IMG/VR virus record: IMGVR_UViG_3300024268_000001
Strand: one strand, 5' to 3'
Source: a virus
Taxonomy: Duplodnaviria; Heunggongvirae; Uroviricota; Caudoviricetes
Length of the DNA stretch: 64,000 bases
Shown here: one piece after another, positions 2,050 to 21,594 of the stretch
Position numbering within the stretch: position 1 is the stretch's first letter
Layout: every line of letters starts with the position of its first letter
Program-made: the position numbers and the translations under genes
The notes under the pieces: generated by a model
Database searches by the model: none
Told to the model about the DNA's origin: nothing
Seen by the model: only the letters and a program-made list of their open reading frames with translations

Positions 2050-2487
2050 TTAATCTTTGGGTTGTGCGGCGAGCCGGAAATAATCTTCCCATTTCTTGAC
2101 TATATGTTGTTTCTGTTCCTTGTTCAGGATTTGAAGATAGAATTTGGCTTCGCGGTCCGTGAGGTCGTATTCCTTCTTTACCGACTCGATTTCGACCGGA
2201 TCGTATTCCTGGGTTCCTTTGAAGTAGTCGTATTTGAAGTAATGCTTCGTGTGCTTTACATAGCCGATGAGGATATTGTAATGCATATCGTCGGTCAGTT
2301 TCTGTGTGGCGAGCTGGTCCGCGACGGGAATCAGATAGTCGTAGGAACAGATGAACCTGTTAATCATGAACTGGCTGTAGCCATTCTGGAGATCTTCCGG
2401 GAGGTCTTTCCATTCCGGGTACTGTTTGGTACAGAGTGCGGTCAGGATTTCCCAGAGAGGATTACGCTTTTTCTGTTTGGTTTCCAT
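2050..2487 (-). CDS. gp62: clamp loader small subunit (T4 gp62-like)
   Basis: YSQFMINRF...VKKEYDLTDREAKFYLQILNKEQ pattern typical of T4-like gp62; near gp44 and gp45. Confidence 0.75.
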   Translation of the reverse strand: METKQKKRNPLWEILTALCTKQYPEWKDLPEDLQNGYSQFMINRFICSYDYLIPVADQLATQKLTDDMHYNILIGYVKHTKHYFKYDYFKGTQEYDPVEIESVKKEYDLTDREAKFYLQILNKEQKQHIVKKWEDYFRLAAQPKD

Positions 2488-3277
2488 TATCTACCTTCTT
2501 GGTCGGCATGGTCTTGATTCTGGACATATCGAACTTTGAGAGTCTCGAAATCGGCCAGTTACCGTTAACCGCCGAAGTCCACTTGTTGAAGAAATTGAGT
2601 CTTAGCTGTTCCCAGTTCTTCGGGAGTTCACCTTGGGATTCATGTTTGACCGAAACCGCCACGGTAGCGACCCTATAGCCCGCGGCGAGCGCCTGGAGAC
2701 AGATGTCGGCATCGTAGAAGTGAAAATCCGGAAGTAATTCGTCGAATCTGAAACCTTTTTCGAAGAACCACTTGGGGAAGAACATGCAGCATCCGTCGAC
2801 GGTGGCCATGAACTTATGGTTACCCGGATAGTCGTTCATCGGGTATTCATAGTGTTCCATGACTGGATTTCCCTTATCGTCGAGGACCGGTTTCTTATTT
2901 TCGTCGAGTTTCGGTCGGATTCCGCCCTGGATGATGGAACCTGCGCCGTAGTTGGCTCTGCCTCCGGCGGACGGGACTCCGTGCCACCATGCACAGCCCT
3001 GGTCCAAGGCGATCGTGCCGATGACTCCCATGACCGCCGCGTTATATTCCTGGCAGACCTTATCTACTTTGAATTCGATAACGTCCAGAGGCGATCTCAG
3101 TTCCGTATCGTCGTGTCGGAAACAAACGTATTTTTCTTTGGAATTGAGAACGAACTGTTCTATGGCGCGGTTATACTTCTTGGCCATAGAATCGTGAGGA
3201 ATGTTTTCGATATACTTGATTGTGTCGGTATCGACTTGGTTTTCGGTTCTTTTATTTACCGGGATTATCTGAAGCAT
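2462..3277 (-). CDS. GT-A fold glycosyltransferase (GT2-like)
   Basis: CFRHDD metal motif, VDGCCMF, FDELLPDFHFYDADICLQA, terminal KHESQG. Confidence 0.75.
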   Translation of the reverse strand: MLQIIPVNKRTENQVDTDTIKYIENIPHDSMAKKYNRAIEQFVLNSKEKYVCFRHDDTELRSPLDVIEFKVDKVCQEYNAAVMGVIGTIALDQGCAWWHGVPSAGGRANYGAGSIIQGGIRPKLDENKKPVLDDKGNPVMEHYEYPMNDYPGNHKFMATVDGCCMFFPKWFFEKGFRFDELLPDFHFYDADICLQALAAGYRVATVAVSVKHESQGELPKNWEQLRLNFFNKWTSAVNGNWPISRLSKFDMSRIKTMPTKKVDNGNQTEKA

Positions 3278-6898: not shown

Positions 6899-7759
6899 CT
6901 ATTTTAAATTCATCCATTCTCTTTCGAGGCGATCCAGCTGATGATTGTAAGACGAGTCCGCCCATGTCGGCATAATCTGTTTGAAATCGGAATAGGTGCC
7001 GCCGATATGTTTCCACCAGCAGGCGAGCGCGAATATTTGGTTATGCCTTGTTCCTTCGGGAGCTGATTCAATTGTTTTCTCTACGTATTCTTTAGCCTTG
7101 GTAAGATCGCCTGTCTTATTACGCTTACGAGACTTCATGTACGATGCTTCAAGATCTCTTAAGTAATTCTGTTGACGCCATTCGCATTCGTTGTAAGCCT
7201 GTTCAAAGAATTCGATTTCCTCGAAAGGATTAAACTTCTTTCCGTTGTTAATCTTATAATAATACGGCGAGCCTTTAGACTTGACCGCCGGGCACTTGAA
7301 GAACTGTGCTCTGACGAAAGATGCCGGGTCAACATGGTCGAAGAAATCAATTAAGTAGAAATACGGGCTCCACTGTTTCTGTGATCCCTTGAAGAAAAAT
7401 CTATTAATCTCGTATTCCTTGTCCAAGAACAGAAGGACACGGAACTTCTGATTCACACCGTCATAAGAATAACTGGTGTGCAGAATGTACCTGTAGTCCC
7501 TGAATCTGTTTTGGAATTGTTCGATTGTATACTCTGTAGAGTCATAGTCCAACATGAGAATATCGGTAGAACCCATATTCTCTGTGCAACGTTTCTCTCC
7601 TTTCATCGAACAGAACTTCCACTGTGGTATCTTAGACTTGTCTTCGACTACCATAGGGTTCATGATCGCCTTGATTGTATTCTCGGCGACAGCCTTGTTC
7701 CATTCGATAGGCTTGCACTTGTTGTCGAACTGATTTTTAATCGTTTGAATATACCGCAT
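6899..7759 (-). CDS. AEP/VirE-N-like primase-type protein with PriCT-like C-terminus
   Basis: LMLDYD, HTSYS...KFRVLL, VDPASF, EGTRHNQIFALA. Confidence 0.6.
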   Translation of the reverse strand: MRYIQTIKNQFDNKCKPIEWNKAVAENTIKAIMNPMVVEDKSKIPQWKFCSMKGEKRCTENMGSTDILMLDYDSTEYTIEQFQNRFRDYRYILHTSYSYDGVNQKFRVLLFLDKEYEINRFFFKGSQKQWSPYFYLIDFFDHVDPASFVRAQFFKCPAVKSKGSPYYYKINNGKKFNPFEEIEFFEQAYNECEWRQQNYLRDLEASYMKSRKRNKTGDLTKAKEYVEKTIESAPEGTRHNQIFALACWWKHIGGTYSDFKQIMPTWADSSYNHQLDRLEREWMNLK

Positions 7760-8606
7760 CTACAGCCAACTGTAATCTATTAAGTACGATCATTATGTCG
7801 TCGTTATACTTGAGCGGAATTCCACCAGCATGTGCGTGACCGCCGCCGACATTCATAATCTTGAACACCTTTGTAAGGTCGATTTCATTGCAACGGATAG
7901 AGAGGGCGTTCTTGTTCTTGATTGCGAACCACTTATAGCCTTCCTTCTTGAGTTCCTCGACACATTCGTTCATGAATCGGTCTGTCTCGAAGAACGCGCC
8001 GTTGTTAGAGAGGTCGGAGATTTCAAGGTTAGCATAAAGCTTTTTGAATTCGGCCTGAGCATCAATTAAGTATTTTTGTTCTTCCGGGTAGAGCTTCGTA
8101 TTTCCATTAAGGAATCTGCGGGTAAACCACTTAGGACCCATTTCCCAGTAAATGTTATTGAAGAATCGCGATCTCTTGTCTGACAGGATGAACATATCCC
8201 AGTCGTTCGTGATGTTAATGAGGTCGTCAAGGTAGGAAATATCTTTAAAGGTCTTGACGAATCTGTAGGTGAGCATCGCGCCGCAAGCAGAAGTATTAAT
8301 GATAACTGTCTTGTTGTCGTGGTATTTCTGTGCGGTCTCGTGGTGGTCCAGTACAAGAACGTTCGGGAAAGCTTCGCGAATCTGCGACATGGTTAGAGAC
8401 GGATAGAAATCGGTGATGATAACCAAATCAACCTTATCCTTGTACTTGGCGATCACGTTTGTAATAACACGTTCTTCTGACTGGTATGTAATATATTCGG
8501 TTTCAATGTCCTTATAGAAGTTACGAAGGACAATGTTAGACGATACACCGTCGAGGTCAGAATGTGTTAAGTTTAAAATTTTTAATTCGGGATTATTATA
8601 ATTCAT
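7737..8606 (-). CDS. DHH/DHHA1 phosphoesterase
   Basis: THSDLDG, ITDF, LDHH, GGGHAHAGG. Confidence 0.9.
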   Translation of the reverse strand: MNYNNPELKILNLTHSDLDGVSSNIVLRNFYKDIETEYITYQSEERVITNVIAKYKDKVDLVIITDFYPSLTMSQIREAFPNVLVLDHHETAQKYHDNKTVIINTSACGAMLTYRFVKTFKDISYLDDLINITNDWDMFILSDKRSRFFNNIYWEMGPKWFTRRFLNGNTKLYPEEQKYLIDAQAEFKKLYANLEISDLSNNGAFFETDRFMNECVEELKKEGYKWFAIKNKNALSIRCNEIDLTKVFKIMNVGGGHAHAGGIPLKYNDDIMIVLNRLQLAVDAVYSND

Positions 8607-14530: not shown

Positions 14531-15358
14531 CTACTCTAGCGGAAACTCGTCCCGCGGAATCTTCTTCTTCAATCGCCTCAACGCCTTGTTCTTTATCTGT
14601 CGCACTCTTTCCCTTGAATAACCCGTAAGATCGCCGACATCTCCCAATGTATAATCCTTACCGTTAGTGCCGAAGAATAAATTCAGAATATCATTTTCTT
14701 TTGTCGTTGTATTGGTCAGTACATACTGCTTGAGTAACTTGTTACGGTTGGTAACCAAATACTTCTGCTGTGCGTTGGACTTCTGGTCTGGTACAATATC
14801 ATTCAGCGTATGATCTGTTTCCATGTTCATCCCGTGTTCACGCATCGTCACCGGTGTTTCCAATGAAATCGGTTCGAACGTATTCTGGATAAGTTTCATC
14901 GTATCGAGTTCCGCCTTGTTCTTTACCAAGTCTTCAAGCGGTAACCCTGTCTCACGCATATTACGCTGGAGTTCGAAGTAACGGTACTGCTGGTTGGACG
15001 GGATATGAATGAGTCGGCTCTTGCCGATAATGAATGCCAGCATGCTTTGACGAATCCACCATACCGCGTATGAAATGAACCTGATGTTACGCGAGGCATC
15101 GTATGTATTGATTGCATGGTACATGCCGGCCATGCCTTCGTTAACAAGATCTGCAAGACTGTAGTTTTTGCCGGTATATTTCTTAGCACATGAGACAACG
15201 AATAATAAATGACTGTTAGCTATCTTCTTGACAGCTGCTTGTCTGACGAGTTTATCCTTTGTTGACTTGATAATCGAAAAACATGCCGCCTCTTCTTTAT
15301 CTGTCATATGGCGGGTGTTTCGAATATCTCTCATGAACTGTTCAAATAGATATTCCAT
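14531..15358 (-). CDS. RNA polymerase sigma factor, sigma70 family (RpoD-like regions 1.2, 2, 3 and 4)
   Basis: DLVNEG, RFISYAVWWIRQ, ISLETPV, YTLGDVG...SRERVRQIKNKALRRL. Confidence 0.93.
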   Translation of the reverse strand: MEYLFEQFMRDIRNTRHMTDKEEAACFSIIKSTKDKLVRQAAVKKIANSHLLFVVSCAKKYTGKNYSLADLVNEGMAGMYHAINTYDASRNIRFISYAVWWIRQSMLAFIIGKSRLIHIPSNQQYRYFELQRNMRETGLPLEDLVKNKAELDTMKLIQNTFEPISLETPVTMREHGMNMETDHTLNDIVPDQKSNAQQKYLVTNRNKLLKQYVLTNTTTKENDILNLFFGTNGKDYTLGDVGDLTGYSRERVRQIKNKALRRLKKKIPRDEFPLE

Positions 15359-15502: not shown

Positions 15503-15531
15503 AATATAGCATACGTTTTTTGTTTTGTAAA
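15503..15531 (-). promoter_or_regulatory. promoter TTTACA-N17-TATATT upstream of the sigma gene
   Basis: Exact consensus and spacing. Confidence 0.8.
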
Positions 15532-15546
15532 CCCCTTTGGCCATAT

Positions 15547-15637
15547 AAAAAACCCCATGTGACCGAAATCACATGGGGCCAAACCAACTACTCATCGTAG
15601 CAAAGGAGTCGTAACAATATGGCAAACAATCACGACC
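15547..15637 (-). ncRNA. candidate small RNA (~90 nt, three hairpins)
   Basis: Own promoter (15643-15671) and terminator (CCCCATGTGA/TCACATGGGG plus T run); no meaningful ORF on this strand. Confidence 0.45.
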
Positions 15638-15642
15638 TTTAT

Positions 15643-15671
15643 AATATAGCAAATAATTTTTCTTTCGTAAA
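15643..15671 (-). promoter_or_regulatory. promoter TTTACG-N17-TATATT
   Basis: Consensus spacing; points into the 15547-15637 segment. Confidence 0.7.
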
Positions 15672-15690
15672 CCCCCCGGAGGCAAAAAAA

Positions 15691-16539
15691 TTATACTGCT
15701 ACAGGGAACTTAATAGCCGGATGACTCTGGTAATCTTTCAATTCGAAATCGGTATACTTCCAGTCCCAGATAGTCCAGTTAGGATCGTCCGTGTTAAGGA
15801 TCTCTACTGACGGAGGTGTCATAGGCTCGCGAGTCAACTGTTCCCTCACACCATCAAGCTGGTTGACATAGATGTGGGAATCCGCGAAGAAACCGATAAC
15901 CTTGCCAGGCTTCATCTTTACCTGCTTGCAGATCAACGTGAGCAACATGGCATAAGATGCCAGGTCATATGGAACTCCGAGAGGAAAATCAGAACTACGC
16001 TGATTCCAGAGCAAATCAACGTAACCGTCATTAGACAGTAACTGGAAACAGTAGTGACAAGGAGGCAATGCCATTTCACCTAACTGCTGTGGGTTCCAGG
16101 CGGAGACCAACATACGTCTATCGGTAGGATTGGTCTGTAACGTGTGAATCACATTCTTCAACTGGTTGATGCCTGAATCGTTGAAGTTGTTCCACTGGTA
16201 ACCGTAGATTTTACCCAGGTCGTTTTCAGCGGCCATCTTCTTTTTGGTTTCTTCATCATTACCGTAAGGAACCTTAGCCGGGTTGGCCCACTCGTCCCAG
16301 ATATGGCAGTTACGTTCCTTGAGGAATTCCTTATTGGCGATGCCCTTGATGAACATCTCCAGTTCGGCGCATATATTCTTCAGTCCCATTTTCTTCGTGG
16401 TTAACAAAGGGAACTTTCCTGTAGACATATCGAATTCAATCATTGAACCCGAGATTGACAAAGTGTCCACACCTGTACGGTTATGTTTAATCTTTCCTTC
16501 CTTAAGAATTCTATCAAGTATGTCAAGATACTGTTTCAT
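15691..16539 (-). CDS. thyA: thymidylate synthase-fold enzyme with Asp at the Asn177-equivalent position (possible dCMP methyltransferase)
   Basis: RTG, IWDEW, YGYQW, DRR, LPPCH, QRSSD, HIY all present; GVPYDLASY in place of the canonical GLPFNIASY. Confidence 0.92.
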   Translation of the reverse strand: MKQYLDILDRILKEGKIKHNRTGVDTLSISGSMIEFDMSTGKFPLLTTKKMGLKNICAELEMFIKGIANKEFLKERNCHIWDEWANPAKVPYGNDEETKKKMAAENDLGKIYGYQWNNFNDSGINQLKNVIHTLQTNPTDRRMLVSAWNPQQLGEMALPPCHYCFQLLSNDGYVDLLWNQRSSDFPLGVPYDLASYAMLLTLICKQVKMKPGKVIGFFADSHIYVNQLDGVREQLTREPMTPPSVEILNTDDPNWTIWDWKYTDFELKDYQSHPAIKFPVAV

Positions 16540-16540
16540 G

Positions 16541-17056
16541 TTATTTCTCCATATGCTTGATTAGTGCGTCAATGAATCTCTGCGCGATAACGTCATGTGA
16601 TGCGTAGTGATCGCCATCATTGACCTTAATCATAAGTTTGTTTAATTTCGATTCCTGGAACTTCTTGATGAAGTCCTCTTGTTCTTCCTGTCTACGGCTG
16701 AAGTCATGGGACTGACCGTCATCCTGCATGATATTGAAATCCGTAGTATAGAGAAGGATGAAGATCGTGTTATACAGTTCGTCCCTGTATGAATCTTCCA
16801 TGATGCGTACGTAGTTAGGACTGTAATCCCTGTAACGTGGCGCATAGATGAGTTCGTCCCAATGCCCGCGGTTAAATACCACGTTGTTCTGGTAAGCCAG
16901 CGTCATGAAGTAATCCAGGTACTGAGACTTGGACCAGATAAGAGGATCCTTATCCTTAGGAGGCTTGTCCAGATGAATCTGCTTATAGCCTTTCAATACG
17001 TTATCAATAAAGGTATTCTTTCCAATGCGGTCGATTCCAGTAACTACGAAATTCAT
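16541..17056 (-). CDS. P-loop nucleoside monophosphate kinase (thymidylate-kinase-like)
   Basis: GIDRIGKNT P-loop, VFNRGHWDELIY; stop codon 1 nt from the TS start. Confidence 0.75.
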   Translation of the reverse strand: MNFVVTGIDRIGKNTFIDNVLKGYKQIHLDKPPKDKDPLIWSKSQYLDYFMTLAYQNNVVFNRGHWDELIYAPRYRDYSPNYVRIMEDSYRDELYNTIFILLYTTDFNIMQDDGQSHDFSRRQEEQEDFIKKFQESKLNKLMIKVNDGDHYASHDVIAQRFIDALIKHMEK

Positions 17057-18096
17057 TAAGACTGCTCCTTGTAACTGTTATACAATTCAGTAAAGCTTGC
17101 ATACAGTTCATCTTTGTTCAACGGTGTATCATGTTGTTCAAGGTATGTCTTAAACAATGACATGATATTATTAAGTGTCTCGCCCGACAGTTCAACTTCC
17201 TCTGTGGTGTCGTCCGCGGGCAGGATATTGATATTGACTGGATATGCCGGTTTCAATTTCTCAAGCTTATCCACGAGCGAATAGATCTTCTTCGTCTGGT
17301 CAGAGAGTTCAAAAGGTATCTCCAGGTCAACAACATTACCCGCGATGACAGACAGGTCTACGTCCGGGAAGGTATGCTTGGTGAACTTAATGGACTGCGT
17401 ATTCTCGTGTAACACGTCTTCGTTGGTGTCCAGGTCAAGTATGTGGTAACCCTTGGTGTCTCCGCGGTCTATTCTAGTAAGCTGGTATGGCGAACCGAGA
17501 TATGTAATGGACTTGTTCTTCTCGTACTTCCTGGTATAGCCGTTATGGTAATGACCCGAATAGACATGATCTATATGGTCGAGGAGTGTAGAAGCCATGA
17601 GACCCGAATCCGAAAGACGACCGCCCATGTTGAAACCGATAATATCAGCGTGGCAGAAGCAATACTCGTGATGCCCGGGTACTATCTCCTCGAACTTGGA
17701 GTAGTCAGTAATCCAGGGAAGCATAAGTATGTTATGTCCGTCCAGTGTAATTTCCGTGGGCTTTTCATACACGGTAACGTGAGGCATCAGGTCAAGAACC
17801 TTCAGGCTGTTTACCTCTGTGGTAGTAGTCATGTACATGTCGTGGTTACCTACTATAACATGTATGTCAAAATCCTTCAGCGTATTCTTGAACAGATCGA
17901 TGACCACGTTATCTGTCTGAACGTTAACTGCCTGGCGAGTGTCGAAGACGTCGCCAAGTATGAATAGCTTGGTAATACCTGCAGCCTTGAGCTCAGGAAC
18001 CAGTTGGTCAGTAAAAAACTTTAATTGTGAACGCTGGAAGATAGAATCTGATTTTTTAATTCCAGCATGCAAGTCTGCTATCAATGCTATTTTCAT
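17056..18096 (-). CDS. gp47: recombination nuclease subunit (T4 gp47 / Mre11 / SbcD-like)
   Basis: ADLH, LGDVFD, VGNHD, CHADI, SGHYH. Confidence 0.92.
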   Translation of the reverse strand: MKIALIADLHAGIKKSDSIFQRSQLKFFTDQLVPELKAAGITKLFILGDVFDTRQAVNVQTDNVVIDLFKNTLKDFDIHVIVGNHDMYMTTTTEVNSLKVLDLMPHVTVYEKPTEITLDGHNILMLPWITDYSKFEEIVPGHHEYCFCHADIIGFNMGGRLSDSGLMASTLLDHIDHVYSGHYHNGYTRKYEKNKSITYLGSPYQLTRIDRGDTKGYHILDLDTNEDVLHENTQSIKFTKHTFPDVDLSVIAGNVVDLEIPFELSDQTKKIYSLVDKLEKLKPAYPVNINILPADDTTEEVELSGETLNNIMSLFKTYLEQHDTPLNKDELYASFTELYNSYKEQS

Positions 18097-19598: not shown

Positions 19599-19840
19599 TA
19601 TCTATTAAGCTGTTCGATGAATTCCTTTACCGAGACCGGCTTGTCATCAATGCGGGGGTCGACCCAGAAGGAGACCGGATCGCCAAAGCTCGTACGGTAC
19701 TTGAACTTCATGCCAGTACCTTTCTTAATGAACTCGTCGGAACCGGATTCGTCAAATAGGTCTACTTCTTGATGTATAAAGTTCGATTGTTCAGTTAAGA
19801 GTCTGGCTTCCGCCATTGTTACCTGTTGCCAATTATTCAT
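19598..19840 (-). CDS. hypothetical protein
   Basis: 80 aa; overlaps both neighbours (ATGA / TAATG). Confidence 0.7.
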   Translation of the reverse strand: MNNWQQVTMAEARLLTEQSNFIHQEVDLFDESGSDEFIKKGTGMKFKYRTSFGDPVSFWVDPRIDDKPVSVKEFIEQLNR

Positions 19841-21594
19841 TTTACCTCCAGGGTGCTGAATCCACCCGGTTTCTTATCAATCTTGATTACGCTACTGATC
19901 GCTATCTTCGGCTCTGTGAGCTTGTGCGATACAATATATATGCCAAGTTTGTTCTTCTTGTTCTCGTTTACAATATTGTATAAAGTCGAAAGGAACTGGT
20001 CTATACCCGACTGGTCCACTCCGTTGTCGATCAGCTCGTCGATGAAAATGATGTTGCAGCTCCAGTTAGAGATGATTCGTGACGTGTTGAAGAAGCTGAG
20101 TAGGATGGACATGTCGATTCGGCTACGCTCGCCGCCAGAGAACTGGTTGTAGATTCGCGGGTAACGACCCTTCATCATAACTACCTTCATCTGATCGTCA
20201 AACGTAATCTTCACGGGCAGTTCAAACTTATGAAGGAAATCGTTAACGTTTTTATTAAGGATTAAGATTAACTTCTTGAAGAAATACTGTTTGATTCCAG
20301 TATCGCCGAGGATGTTAACCAGTTCGTTATCGATGTCAATCTTATGCTGGTACTCGTTAATCTCCTGCTCTACTGTCGCAAGCTGGGCAGAGAGAGTCTT
20401 AAGAGCATCGTGGTACTCGTCAAGGGTGATACTGCATTCCTTGTTCTGTTCTTCAACAAGACTGTCGTTCAGGCTCGCGATCCTGTTCTGCAGGTCAGTG
20501 ACAAGATTCGATTCCTCGCGAAGCTTGGTCTGAATGGTTGTAATGAATTCCGACTTGCGCTTATGTTCAATGTACTGCGTCTGGTACTCGTTGATACCTG
20601 CAGTGAGCTGAGGGATAAGCGTTTCGGAAATATTCTTCAGTTCTTCATTCAACTGTATGATATGCTGCTTGGCATGTCCTTCGTTCAACGGCGATCCGCA
20701 AATAGGACATTCGTTTTTCGTAGACAATCCTTTAAGAGTCTTCTCTATACGGGTTTTATCCGCGGTAGCGCCGCCAAGTTTCGTACTTAGCTCGCCATAG
20801 ACCGTACTGTCCGGAGCCGTGCCCAGTTCAGCCACGTGTTTCTCAAGCGCTTTTTGGCCTGTGGTCACGTTTTTCATGGCCTTAGTAAGTTTACCCTGTG
20901 CATCCTCGATCTGCTGCTTGATGCGATTTACCGCGGCTTCCTTAGTCTCATTGAAATTCGCGATGTACTTCTGCATATTCTCTATATAACGGTTGTTGTC
21001 TTCGATACGTCCGTTGATATAGCCCATCTCGTTGATTTTGATTTGCTGGTTAGCCGCGTTGACGGTCTTACGCTTCTTAACGTCCTTGCACATGAGTCCA
21101 AGGATGTCTATGTTAAAGATGTTTTCGATTAGGGCACGCTGATCGCCGATAGACATGGAGAGGAACGGCGTGTTGTTCGTGACGTTGGTTGCCACGATGT
21201 TCTTGAATAGCCTTATGTTGATGCCTAGGAGCTTATCTATCTCGTCCTGGTTAAGCTTCTTGGATGACAGCAAGTCTAACTGCTGCCCGTTCTTCGTAAT
21301 CTCAAGGATGGTTGGCTTCAGGCCTCTCGCGATGGTATAGGAATCCTTACCTATATTAAACGTTACCTCTGTGTAGAGATCTTTCTCGTTGATTTCATTT
21401 ATTAAGTTATTAAGTTTGATGTCCCTGTATGGTTTACCGAAGAGACAGAAGGTAAGAGCGTCGAGGATGGTAGACTTACCCGATCCGTTAGCCGCTGTGA
21501 CTATGTTAATCCCATTGTTGAAATCCAATTCTGTCATTTGGTTTCCATAGGATAATATATTCTTAAATCTGATTTTCTTGAATTCTATGTACAT
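19837..21594 (-). CDS. gp46: recombination ATPase subunit (T4 gp46 / Rad50 / SbcC-like)
   Basis: NGSGKSTILDAL, coiled coil, CPICG zinc hook, FSGGE, FIDE, SH. Confidence 0.95.
   Translation of the reverse strand: MYIEFKKIRFKNILSYGNQMTELDFNNGINIVTAANGSGKSTILDALTFCLFGKPYRDIKLNNLINEINEKDLYTEVTFNIGKDSYTIARGLKPTILEITKNGQQLDLLSSKKLNQDEIDKLLGINIRLFKNIVATNVTNNTPFLSMSIGDQRALIENIFNIDILGLMCKDVKKRKTVNAANQQIKINEMGYINGRIEDNNRYIENMQKYIANFNETKEAAVNRIKQQIEDAQGKLTKAMKNVTTGQKALEKHVAELGTAPDSTVYGELSTKLGGATADKTRIEKTLKGLSTKNECPICGSPLNEGHAKQHIIQLNEELKNISETLIPQLTAGINEYQTQYIEHKRKSEFITTIQTKLREESNLVTDLQNRIASLNDSLVEEQNKECSITLDEYHDALKTLSAQLATVEQEINEYQHKIDIDNELVNILGDTGIKQYFFKKLILILNKNVNDFLHKFELPVKITFDDQMKVVMMKGRYPRIYNQFSGGERSRIDMSILLSFFNTSRIISNWSCNIIFIDELIDNGVDQSGIDQFLSTLYNIVNENKKNKLGIYIVSHKLTEPKIAISSVIKIDKKPGGFSTLEVK

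Follow-up and report, generated by a model that had tools for sequence, protein, structure and literature searches.

A Thymidylate Synthase Homologue with Aspartate at the Base-Specificity Position Is a Probable 5-Methyldeoxycytidylate Synthase of Gut Megaphages

Introduction

Can a single aspartate in a phage thymidylate synthase (TS) homologue redirect methylation from deoxyuridylate (dUMP) to deoxycytidylate (dCMP)? This question is raised by a ThyA-family gene at positions 15691–16539 (minus strand) of the IMG/VR record IMGVR_UViG_3300024268_000001, a stretch of 64,000 nucleotides from a virus of the class Caudoviricetes that we refer to as the window. An initial annotation of this DNA had proposed that the encoded protein is a dCMP methyltransferase of a phage with modified cytosines. 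The analysis described here supports this proposal: an Asp that specifies dCMP sits in an otherwise TS-like active site, and the enzyme probably methylates dCMP at C5 to feed the synthesis of DNA containing 5-methylcytosine (5mC). We infer the product from active-site residues and gene context.

Exchange of Asn177 for Asp is known to make dCMP methylases of the TS from Escherichia coli and Lactobacillus casei (cited in PMC8670742). In viromes analyzed by MetaGPA, the most discriminating TS residues were position 177, which is Asn in unmodified and Asp in modified contigs, and position 147, which in the homologues from modified contigs is usually other than His (PMC8670742). A residue code published in 2026 states that N177D selects dCMP as the substrate, that a bulky hydrophobic residue at L143 shuts out water and leads to a methyl product (T4 gp42 and MilA are acidic at this position), and that D169N marks the flavin-dependent 5-hydroxy-dCMP synthases (PMC13326640). 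The TS homologue of phage Xp12 and five of seven tested Asp-type homologues from metaviromes made 5-methyldeoxycytidine (5mdC) in vivo. Neighboring enzymes of the dCMP deaminase family are proposed to turn 5-methyl-dCTP into dTTP, and in the characterized phages Xp12 and PaMx74 the pathway accompanies full replacement of C by 5mC (bioRxiv 10.1101/2024.12.05.627091). Natural Asp-type TS homologues that make 5-methyl-dCMP are therefore already known and validated, namely the Xp12 protein and five metavirome enzymes.

A Canonical ThyA Scaffold with Asp at Position 177

The gene and the codons on which the assignment depends are listed below.

15691..16539, minus strand: ThyA-family gene, 282 amino acids, predicted dCMP C5-methyltransferase (5-methyl-dCMP synthase), full-length match to PF00303
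15964..15966, minus strand: GAC codon of Asp192, at the pyrimidine-specificity position (Asn177 in E. coli ThyA; direct read and alignment)
15988..15990, minus strand: GAT codon of Asp184, equivalent to E. coli D169, where Asn marks flavin-dependent 5-hydroxy-dCMP synthases (rule from PMC13326640)
16057..16059, minus strand: TGT codon of the catalytic Cys161, equivalent to E. coli C146 and followed by His162 (H147; alignment)
16066..16068, minus strand: TTG codon of Leu158, equivalent to E. coli L143, where a hydrophobic residue is linked to methyl over hydroxymethyl products (rule from PMC13326640)

The protein is a full-length member of the ThyA family. It matches PF00303 with 304.3 bits (cut-off 24.3) over the entire profile (1–266 of 266), matches phrog_160, and is 42% identical to E. 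coli ThyA. By sequence, the TS of bacteria and protozoa match best in the PDB (E about 1e-63), and the solved TS structures are 42–44% identical. The second-best match is a chain of L. casei TS that itself carries Asp at the 177 column (1njc/1njd). On the NCBI thymidylate synthase equivalog TIGR03284 the protein scores 270.7 bits with a cut-off of 108.35, compared to 99.6 bits for the Xp12 TS and 30.6 bits for T4 gp42.

The TS motifs named in the initial annotation are all present and its catalytic Cys161 is correct. Its E60 is off by one, as the catalytic-water glutamate is residue 59 and corresponds to E. coli E58. As catalytic set we examined E. coli Cys146, the phosphate-binding Arg21/126/127/166, Glu58, Tyr94, and His207/Tyr209; all are kept at the aligned columns as C161, R21, R141, R142, R181, E59, Y112, H222, and Y224. 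Also kept are E. coli Ala142, Leu143, His147, Gln165, Ser167, Asp169, Gly173, and the folate-site tryptophans Trp80 and Trp83, which are Trp81 and Trp84 in this protein. The C-terminal closing segment, KFPVAV, is of the canonical TS type. Among the 12 residues within 6 Å of C5, as listed in PMC13326640, C168S and N177D are the sole differences from E. coli ThyA. The second of these resides in the motif GVPYDLASY, whose Asp is residue 192; as had been claimed, the minus strand reads GAC at its codon. The Asn at position 177 that a canonical dUMP-type TS requires is replaced in this protein by Asp192.

At positions 143, 169, and 177 the protein carries Leu, Asp, and Asp, which is the methylase pattern, compared to Asp at all three positions in aligned T4 gp42. 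The features of the methylase class, namely Asp at 177, the nonacidic, hydrophobic Leu158, an intact folate pocket, and an intact C-terminus, are found together in this protein. Judged by these residues, it most likely is a 5-methyl-dCMP synthase rather than a hydroxymethylase or a 5-hydroxy-dCMP synthase. The initial annotation had preferred methyl over hydroxymethyl on account of the retained tryptophans. This preference is supported by the Leu at L143, the Asp at D169, Trp80/Trp83, and the KFPVAV terminus.

Asp192 Is Conserved and the Gene Is under Purifying Selection

All 120 of the best homologues from a collection of 5.8 billion proteins (65–95% identity) have Asp at the 177 column, and relatives use both Asp codons, GAC and GAT, at this position. 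Contigs from four runs, including independent DNA and RNA libraries, cover the Asp192 codon at 96–99% identity, and no change at 15964–15966 is among the differences listed for contigs of independent runs. Because the best homologues share the Asp, two codons are used, and the codon recurs in independent contigs, Asp192 is neither a sequencing error nor a private variant. Logan contigs place the TS stretch in many DNA runs from faeces and the bovine gut and in four metatranscriptome libraries; such contigs cannot prove transcription and do not report on base modification.

The gene is under strong purifying selection. Comparison with a relative of 91% protein identity gave 120 synonymous and 24 nonsynonymous codon differences, with only 54% of the third codon positions identical; comparison with a strain-level contig gave 31 synonymous and 1 nonsynonymous differences. 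Between the window and one complete related genome (G001, described below), TS is 91% identical at the protein level, and the neighboring kinase, SbcD, and SbcC proteins are 58, 61, and 52% identical. Since the third codon positions of the TS gene are near saturation, the sequences indicate that this disparity reflects very strong purifying selection on TS and no recent transfer.

Repeated Asn/Asp Switching among ThyA Homologues

The history of the switch was examined in a tree of 153 sequences, comprising cluster representatives and E. coli ThyA, from which the 177 column was removed; Xp12 TS and gp42 were left out because of their long branches. The window protein falls into an all-Asp clade (support 88 in the Shimodaira–Hasegawa-like approximate likelihood ratio test, SH-aLRT) with an Asn-type sequence as its sister, and the two together are nested in a well-supported group that contains both Asp and Asn types. 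Well-supported branches force at least 8 Asn/Asp changes, and the best tree has 12–14. Because its clade is nested in canonical-looking ThyA and its TIGR03284 score is 270.7 bits as opposed to 99.6 for the Xp12 protein, the window enzyme is no orthologue of the Xp12 enzyme; here an ordinary ThyA was converted independently and, by its look, recently. If the 8 or more flips hold, ordinary ThyA would give rise to cytosine-methylating synthases repeatedly and easily, and these would not form a single old phage lineage.

Many close homologues of both the Asp and the Asn type carry an insert of 150–270 amino acids directly after the YG of the Tyr94 motif, for example P0084 (428 aa), P0126 (550 aa), P0128 (467 aa), and P0140 (532 aa). 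In several of them the insert matches an I-HmuI NUMOD-like homing-endonuclease domain. The inserts are probably intron- or insertion-borne endonucleases that gene callers have read through. The TS gene of the window contains no insert; the equivalent site is near 16200–16210.

Relatives Encode the Remainder of a Pathway

A blastn search of the region against GenBank phages returned only a 96-bp match in TS and no cultured close relative. Two complete relatives with terminal repeats, G001 (415,750 bp, TS 91% identical) and G002 (424,163 bp, TS 77% identical), could be searched whole. The initial annotation had recommended a search for a second TS, a dihydrofolate reductase (DHFR), and a dCTPase. 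No second TS emerged: each genome has one PF00303 match, which is of the Asp type, and neither contains ThyX. DHFR is present as one strong match in each (188 bits). For the dCTPase, a candidate was found with T4 gp56 as the query, a gp56-like nucleoside triphosphate (NTP) pyrophosphatase of 250 amino acids in both genomes. It matches phrog_173 (nucleoside triphosphate pyrophosphohydrolase, 7e-13), and BLASTP aligns it with the C-terminal third of gp56 (5e-7). The Pfam families MazG, PRA-PH, and dUTPase, for which five related records were searched, gave no match in G001 and G002.

Both genomes also encode one protein from the dCMP deaminase family. In G001 this gene overlaps the start of the DHFR gene by 4 nt (phrog_174 and phrog_316), and the two are translationally coupled; in G002 they are far apart. 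The TS gene of G001 is about 72 kb from the DHFR–deaminase pair, and the deaminase is not within 3 kb of TS. The G001 deaminase is 25% identical to that of Xp12, which is too distant to read its substrate, be it dCMP or 5-methyl-dC nucleotides. The relatives yielded no C5 DNA methyltransferase. A search for Tet_JBP gave no match, and since the control genomes were silent too, this result is uninformative. An Asn-type relative (G005, TS 49% identical) has neither DHFR nor the deaminase. Because the complete relatives have a DHFR and no dUMP-type TS, it makes most sense that the Asp-type enzyme itself yields dihydrofolate, in other words that it is a reductive methylase.

Some further features of these genomes were recorded. 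In G001, a gene of the ADP-ribosylglycohydrolase family (phrog_6572, 6e-60; L028 120–929, minus strand) follows the deaminase–DHFR pair in the same operon and lies downstream of a FEN/RNase H-like gene; tblastn found no match for the ADP-ribosylglycohydrolase and FEN proteins in the window. A 240-kb Asp-type relative (G004) has a DHFR match in two stretches of one 292-aa frame (150185–150991; L024/L025), which suggests an inserted segment, and a dUTPase-family match that is absent from G001 and G002.

The TS Gene Is Coupled to a Small Kinase Gene in a T4-like Replication Module

The genes and elements around TS are as follows.

16541..17056, minus strand: P-loop kinase of 171 amino acids, candidate (modified) deoxynucleoside monophosphate (dNMP) kinase (weak match to phrog_761, thymidylate kinase; AlphaFold2 fold)
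17056..18096, minus strand: SbcD/gp47-like nuclease subunit (phrog_100, 1e-65; Pfam Metallophos)
19837..21594, minus strand: SbcC/gp46-like subunit, upstream in the SbcC–SbcD–kinase–TS block (phrog_77, 3e-102)
15551..15580, minus strand: terminator-like hairpin with a 13-bp stem and a T run, about 110 nt 3' of the TS stop codon
2462..3277, minus strand: GT2-type glycosyltransferase (Pfam Glyco_tranf_2_5)
7737..8606, minus strand: DHH-family phosphoesterase (RecJ/nanoRNase-like) in the replication module
14531..15358, minus strand: phage sigma-70-family factor with regions 2 and 4, in the replication module

The kinase gene ends with TAA, and a single base separates this stop codon from the ATG of TS. 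SbcD belongs to the same unit because there is a 1-nt overlap between its stop codon and the start of the kinase gene; SbcD, kinase, and TS form one translationally coupled operon. The order SbcC–SbcD–kinase–TS is kept in relatives (L004–L006) whose flanking proteins are 50–60% identical to those of the window. The AlphaFold2 model of the kinase (predicted local distance difference test score, pLDDT, 90.8) has a P-loop nucleoside monophosphate kinase fold. Its closest structural matches are the SPbeta prophage protein YorR (2axp/3kb2), followed by thymidylate kinases; the listing of the 50 best matches contains no structure of the T4 dNMP kinase gp1. Neither Pfam nor NCBIfam assigns the kinase to a family above cut-off. 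From these matches and from the coupling to TS we surmise that the kinase may act on dNMPs, possibly modified ones.

The window forms part of a T4-like replication module: besides SbcC/SbcD, it encodes clamp loader subunits, a gp32-like protein, a DnaB-like helicase, and a sigma factor. The intergenic stretch 3' of TS (15527–15690) is replaced in other strains: contigs from two runs (X10 and X15) diverge into unrelated sequence at 15643, 15675, and 15691, with flanking genes 96–100% identical.

Proposed Mechanism

How may the enzyme and its partners work? We propose that an ordinary ThyA became specific for dCMP by one first-shell change, Asn177 to Asp. Cys161 would attack C6 of dCMP, with Asp192 forming hydrogen bonds to N3/N4 of the cytosine, and the methylene group of methylenetetrahydrofolate (CH2-THF) would move to C5. 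The exocyclic methylene would then be reduced by a hydride from tetrahydrofolate (THF) to give 5-methyl-dCMP and dihydrofolate, a step we propose in view of the true-TS character of the folate pocket, Leu158, and the closing C-terminus. The coupled small kinase could phosphorylate 5-methyl-dCMP, and a nucleoside diphosphate kinase of the host would supply 5-methyl-dCTP to the phage replisome. In the relatives, DHFR would recycle dihydrofolate, the gp56-like NTP pyrophosphatase probably converts dCTP to dCMP, and the deaminase probably converts 5-methyl-dC nucleotides to thymidine nucleotides (or dCMP to dUMP). Phage DNA would then be expected to carry 5mC in place of most or all of its cytosine. 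In its broadest form, this scheme describes megaphages of about 400 kb from the ruminant gut in which the sole TS-family enzyme methylates dCMP and, together with the coupled DCTD-like deaminase and DHFR, would provide both a full 5mC genome and a route to dTTP that is independent of dUMP. We put this complete picture forward as a tentative proposal, clearly less secure than the assignment of the enzyme itself.

Weighing the Alternatives

Several observations count against methylation of dCMP for 5mC DNA. In an alignment with an indel nearby, the L143 column of the Xp12 methylase, a validated enzyme, is occupied by Asn and not by a hydrophobic residue; the L143 rule is therefore a guide rather than an absolute criterion. 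Most TS homologues of modified contigs depart from His at position 147, which the window protein retains (His162). The genes for DHFR, the deaminase, and the pyrophosphatase were found in relatives with core genes only 50–60% identical to those of the window, and tblastn with the G001 DHFR, deaminase, and gp56-like proteins found no match in the window. A conserved GT2 glycosyltransferase, from a family that is widespread in phages, lies 13 kb from TS between clamp-loader genes; it is kept in G001 and G002 at 56–57% identity in a different genome position, and leaves a hydroxymethyl or hydroxy product alive at low probability. Finally, several palindromes are depleted in the window: GCGC (48 observed, 99 expected; 0.48), GATC (144 observed, 233 expected; 0.62), and GATATC (0 observed, 15 expected). 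CTAG (0.49 of expectation) and AGTACT (2 observed, 13 expected) are also rare in the window (1–64000), and CCGG, GGCC, and CGCG are not under-represented. Such avoidance is not obviously expected if all cytosines are methylated. It is an ambiguous signal: the cytosines could be incompletely protected, or the avoided sites could be cut by enzymes indifferent to 5mC.

The main alternative to the preferred reading also has dCMP as the substrate and takes 5-methyl-dC nucleotides mainly as intermediates to dTTP, so that the cytosines of the virion would be ordinary or only partly substituted. The relatives have no dUMP-type TS or ThyX and do have a deaminase-family gene that can be coupled to DHFR; for the deaminase of Xp12-like phages this very role has been proposed (bioRxiv 10.1101/2024.12.05.627091). 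Palindromes that contain C, GCGC and GATC among them, remain avoided, and no dCTPase of the MazG, PRA-PH, or dUTPase type was detected by Pfam in the complete relatives. We nevertheless consider this alternative unlikely, given the gp56-like NTP pyrophosphatase in both complete relatives, the dedicated kinase coupled to TS, and the full replacement by 5mC that accompanies the pathway in Xp12 and PaMx74. The two roles, 5mC in DNA and a route to dTTP, are compatible and do not exclude each other. It is a good deal less probable still that the protein is an ordinary or dual-specificity TS that converts dUMP to dTMP in a lineage that tolerates the Asp. The score of 270.7 bits over the equivalog cut-off of 108.35, the fact that C168S is the only other first-shell difference, and the status of this gene as the sole TS-family member in complete relatives, where a dCMP deaminase could supply dUMP, would all suit such an enzyme. 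Yet the N-to-D exchange converts the E. coli and L. casei enzymes to dCMP methylases (cited in PMC8670742), the natural Asp-type homologues tested so far gave 5mdC or products of the 5-hydroxymethyl-dC (5hmdC) type, and the Asp is strictly kept across a large clade.

Other chemistry at C5 of dCMP must also be considered. A dCMP hydroxymethylase like T4 gp42 would share Asp at 177 with our protein and would be at home in a T4-like replication module, where its 5-hydroxymethylcytosine (5hmC) could be glycosylated, for example by the conserved GT2 enzyme nearby (2462–3277). However, the protein has Leu at the L143 position, which is Asp in gp42 and MilA, and it keeps Trp83, His147, Gln165, and the TS closing C-terminus, all of which gp42 is without. 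DHFR without a dUMP-type TS in the relatives fits production of dihydrofolate, the equivalog scores (270.7 bits for this protein, 30.6 for gp42) differ widely, and the glycosyltransferase belongs to a GT-A-type Pfam family with a wide distribution among phages and no known link to DNA. We give this possibility little credence. Least credible of all is an enzyme of the RB69 gp48 or DLP3 gp80 type, a flavin-dependent synthase of 5-hydroxy-dCMP that would feed glycosylated 5-hydroxycytosine. Asp at 177 and a glycosyltransferase in the window would be shared with such a system, but the diagnostic D169N is absent (Asp184 is kept), as is L143E. Methylation of dCMP that feeds 5mC DNA remains the reading we prefer.

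Comparison with Known Systems

The dCMP C5-methyltransferase of Xp12 (EC 2.1.1.54; QNN97214, MT664984) is likewise a ThyA-family protein with Asp at 177 (LPYD). It is the sole annotated TS of its phage and adjoins a dCMP deaminase and DHFR. The gene set of the relatives, a sole Asp-type TS with DHFR, a dNMP kinase, a DCTD-like deaminase, and a candidate dCTPase, resembles that of Xp12. In contrast to Xp12, the TS, DHFR, and deaminase genes of the relatives are not in one cluster. The Xp12 enzyme is only distantly related to the window protein: it shares 29% identity with E. coli ThyA, carries Pro in place of H147 and Asn in the L143 column, contains an insertion before the catalytic Cys, and also differs at Q165 and in the C-terminus. 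The phages differ as well, Xp12 being a 64-kb Xanthomonas siphovirus and the relatives T4-like gut megaphages of roughly 400 kb.

Two engineered dCMP methylases, the N177D form of E. coli ThyA and the N229D form of L. casei TS (PDB 1njc/1njd), resemble the window protein as canonical TS in which the base-specifying Asn has become Asp. Those proteins are point mutants made in the laboratory, whereas the Asp described here arose in nature, has become fixed across a large clade, and is subject to purifying selection. T4 gp42 shares the ThyA superfamily, the Asp at the specificity position, and dCMP as the substrate, and its partners in a T4-like phage are a dCTPase (gp56) and a dNMP kinase. It differs in being 24% identical to E. 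coli ThyA, with Asp at L143, Thr at H147, and neither Trp83 nor the TS C-terminus, as the protein ends early. T4 gp42 releases THF, and its product carries a hydroxymethyl group. The TS homologues found in metaviromes by MetaGPA, to which we compare by published description, likewise come from uncultured phages and combine Asp177, contigs with modified cytosine, and neighbors of the dCMP deaminase family (PMC8670742; bioRxiv 10.1101/2024.12.05.627091); at position 147 they are mostly non-His and the window protein has His.

Implications

Enzymes of this class have been described before, as has the fact that uncultured phages use them, and the present finding adds to established biology without opening a new field. 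It also carries a warning for annotation. Because the protein passes the curated TIGR03284 cut-off, pipelines will name it thymidylate synthase, and the pathway stays hidden behind this plain label. The repeated Asn/Asp switching in canonical ThyA is the natural counterpart of the classic N177D and N229D mutagenesis. If the assignment is correct, widespread, very large phages of cattle and sheep guts build their DNA with 5-methylcytosine. This would bear on their escape from restriction and possibly from CRISPR nucleases, on their exposure to methyl-dependent (type IV) restriction, and on how phage DNA behaves in methylation-aware sequencing of gut viromes.

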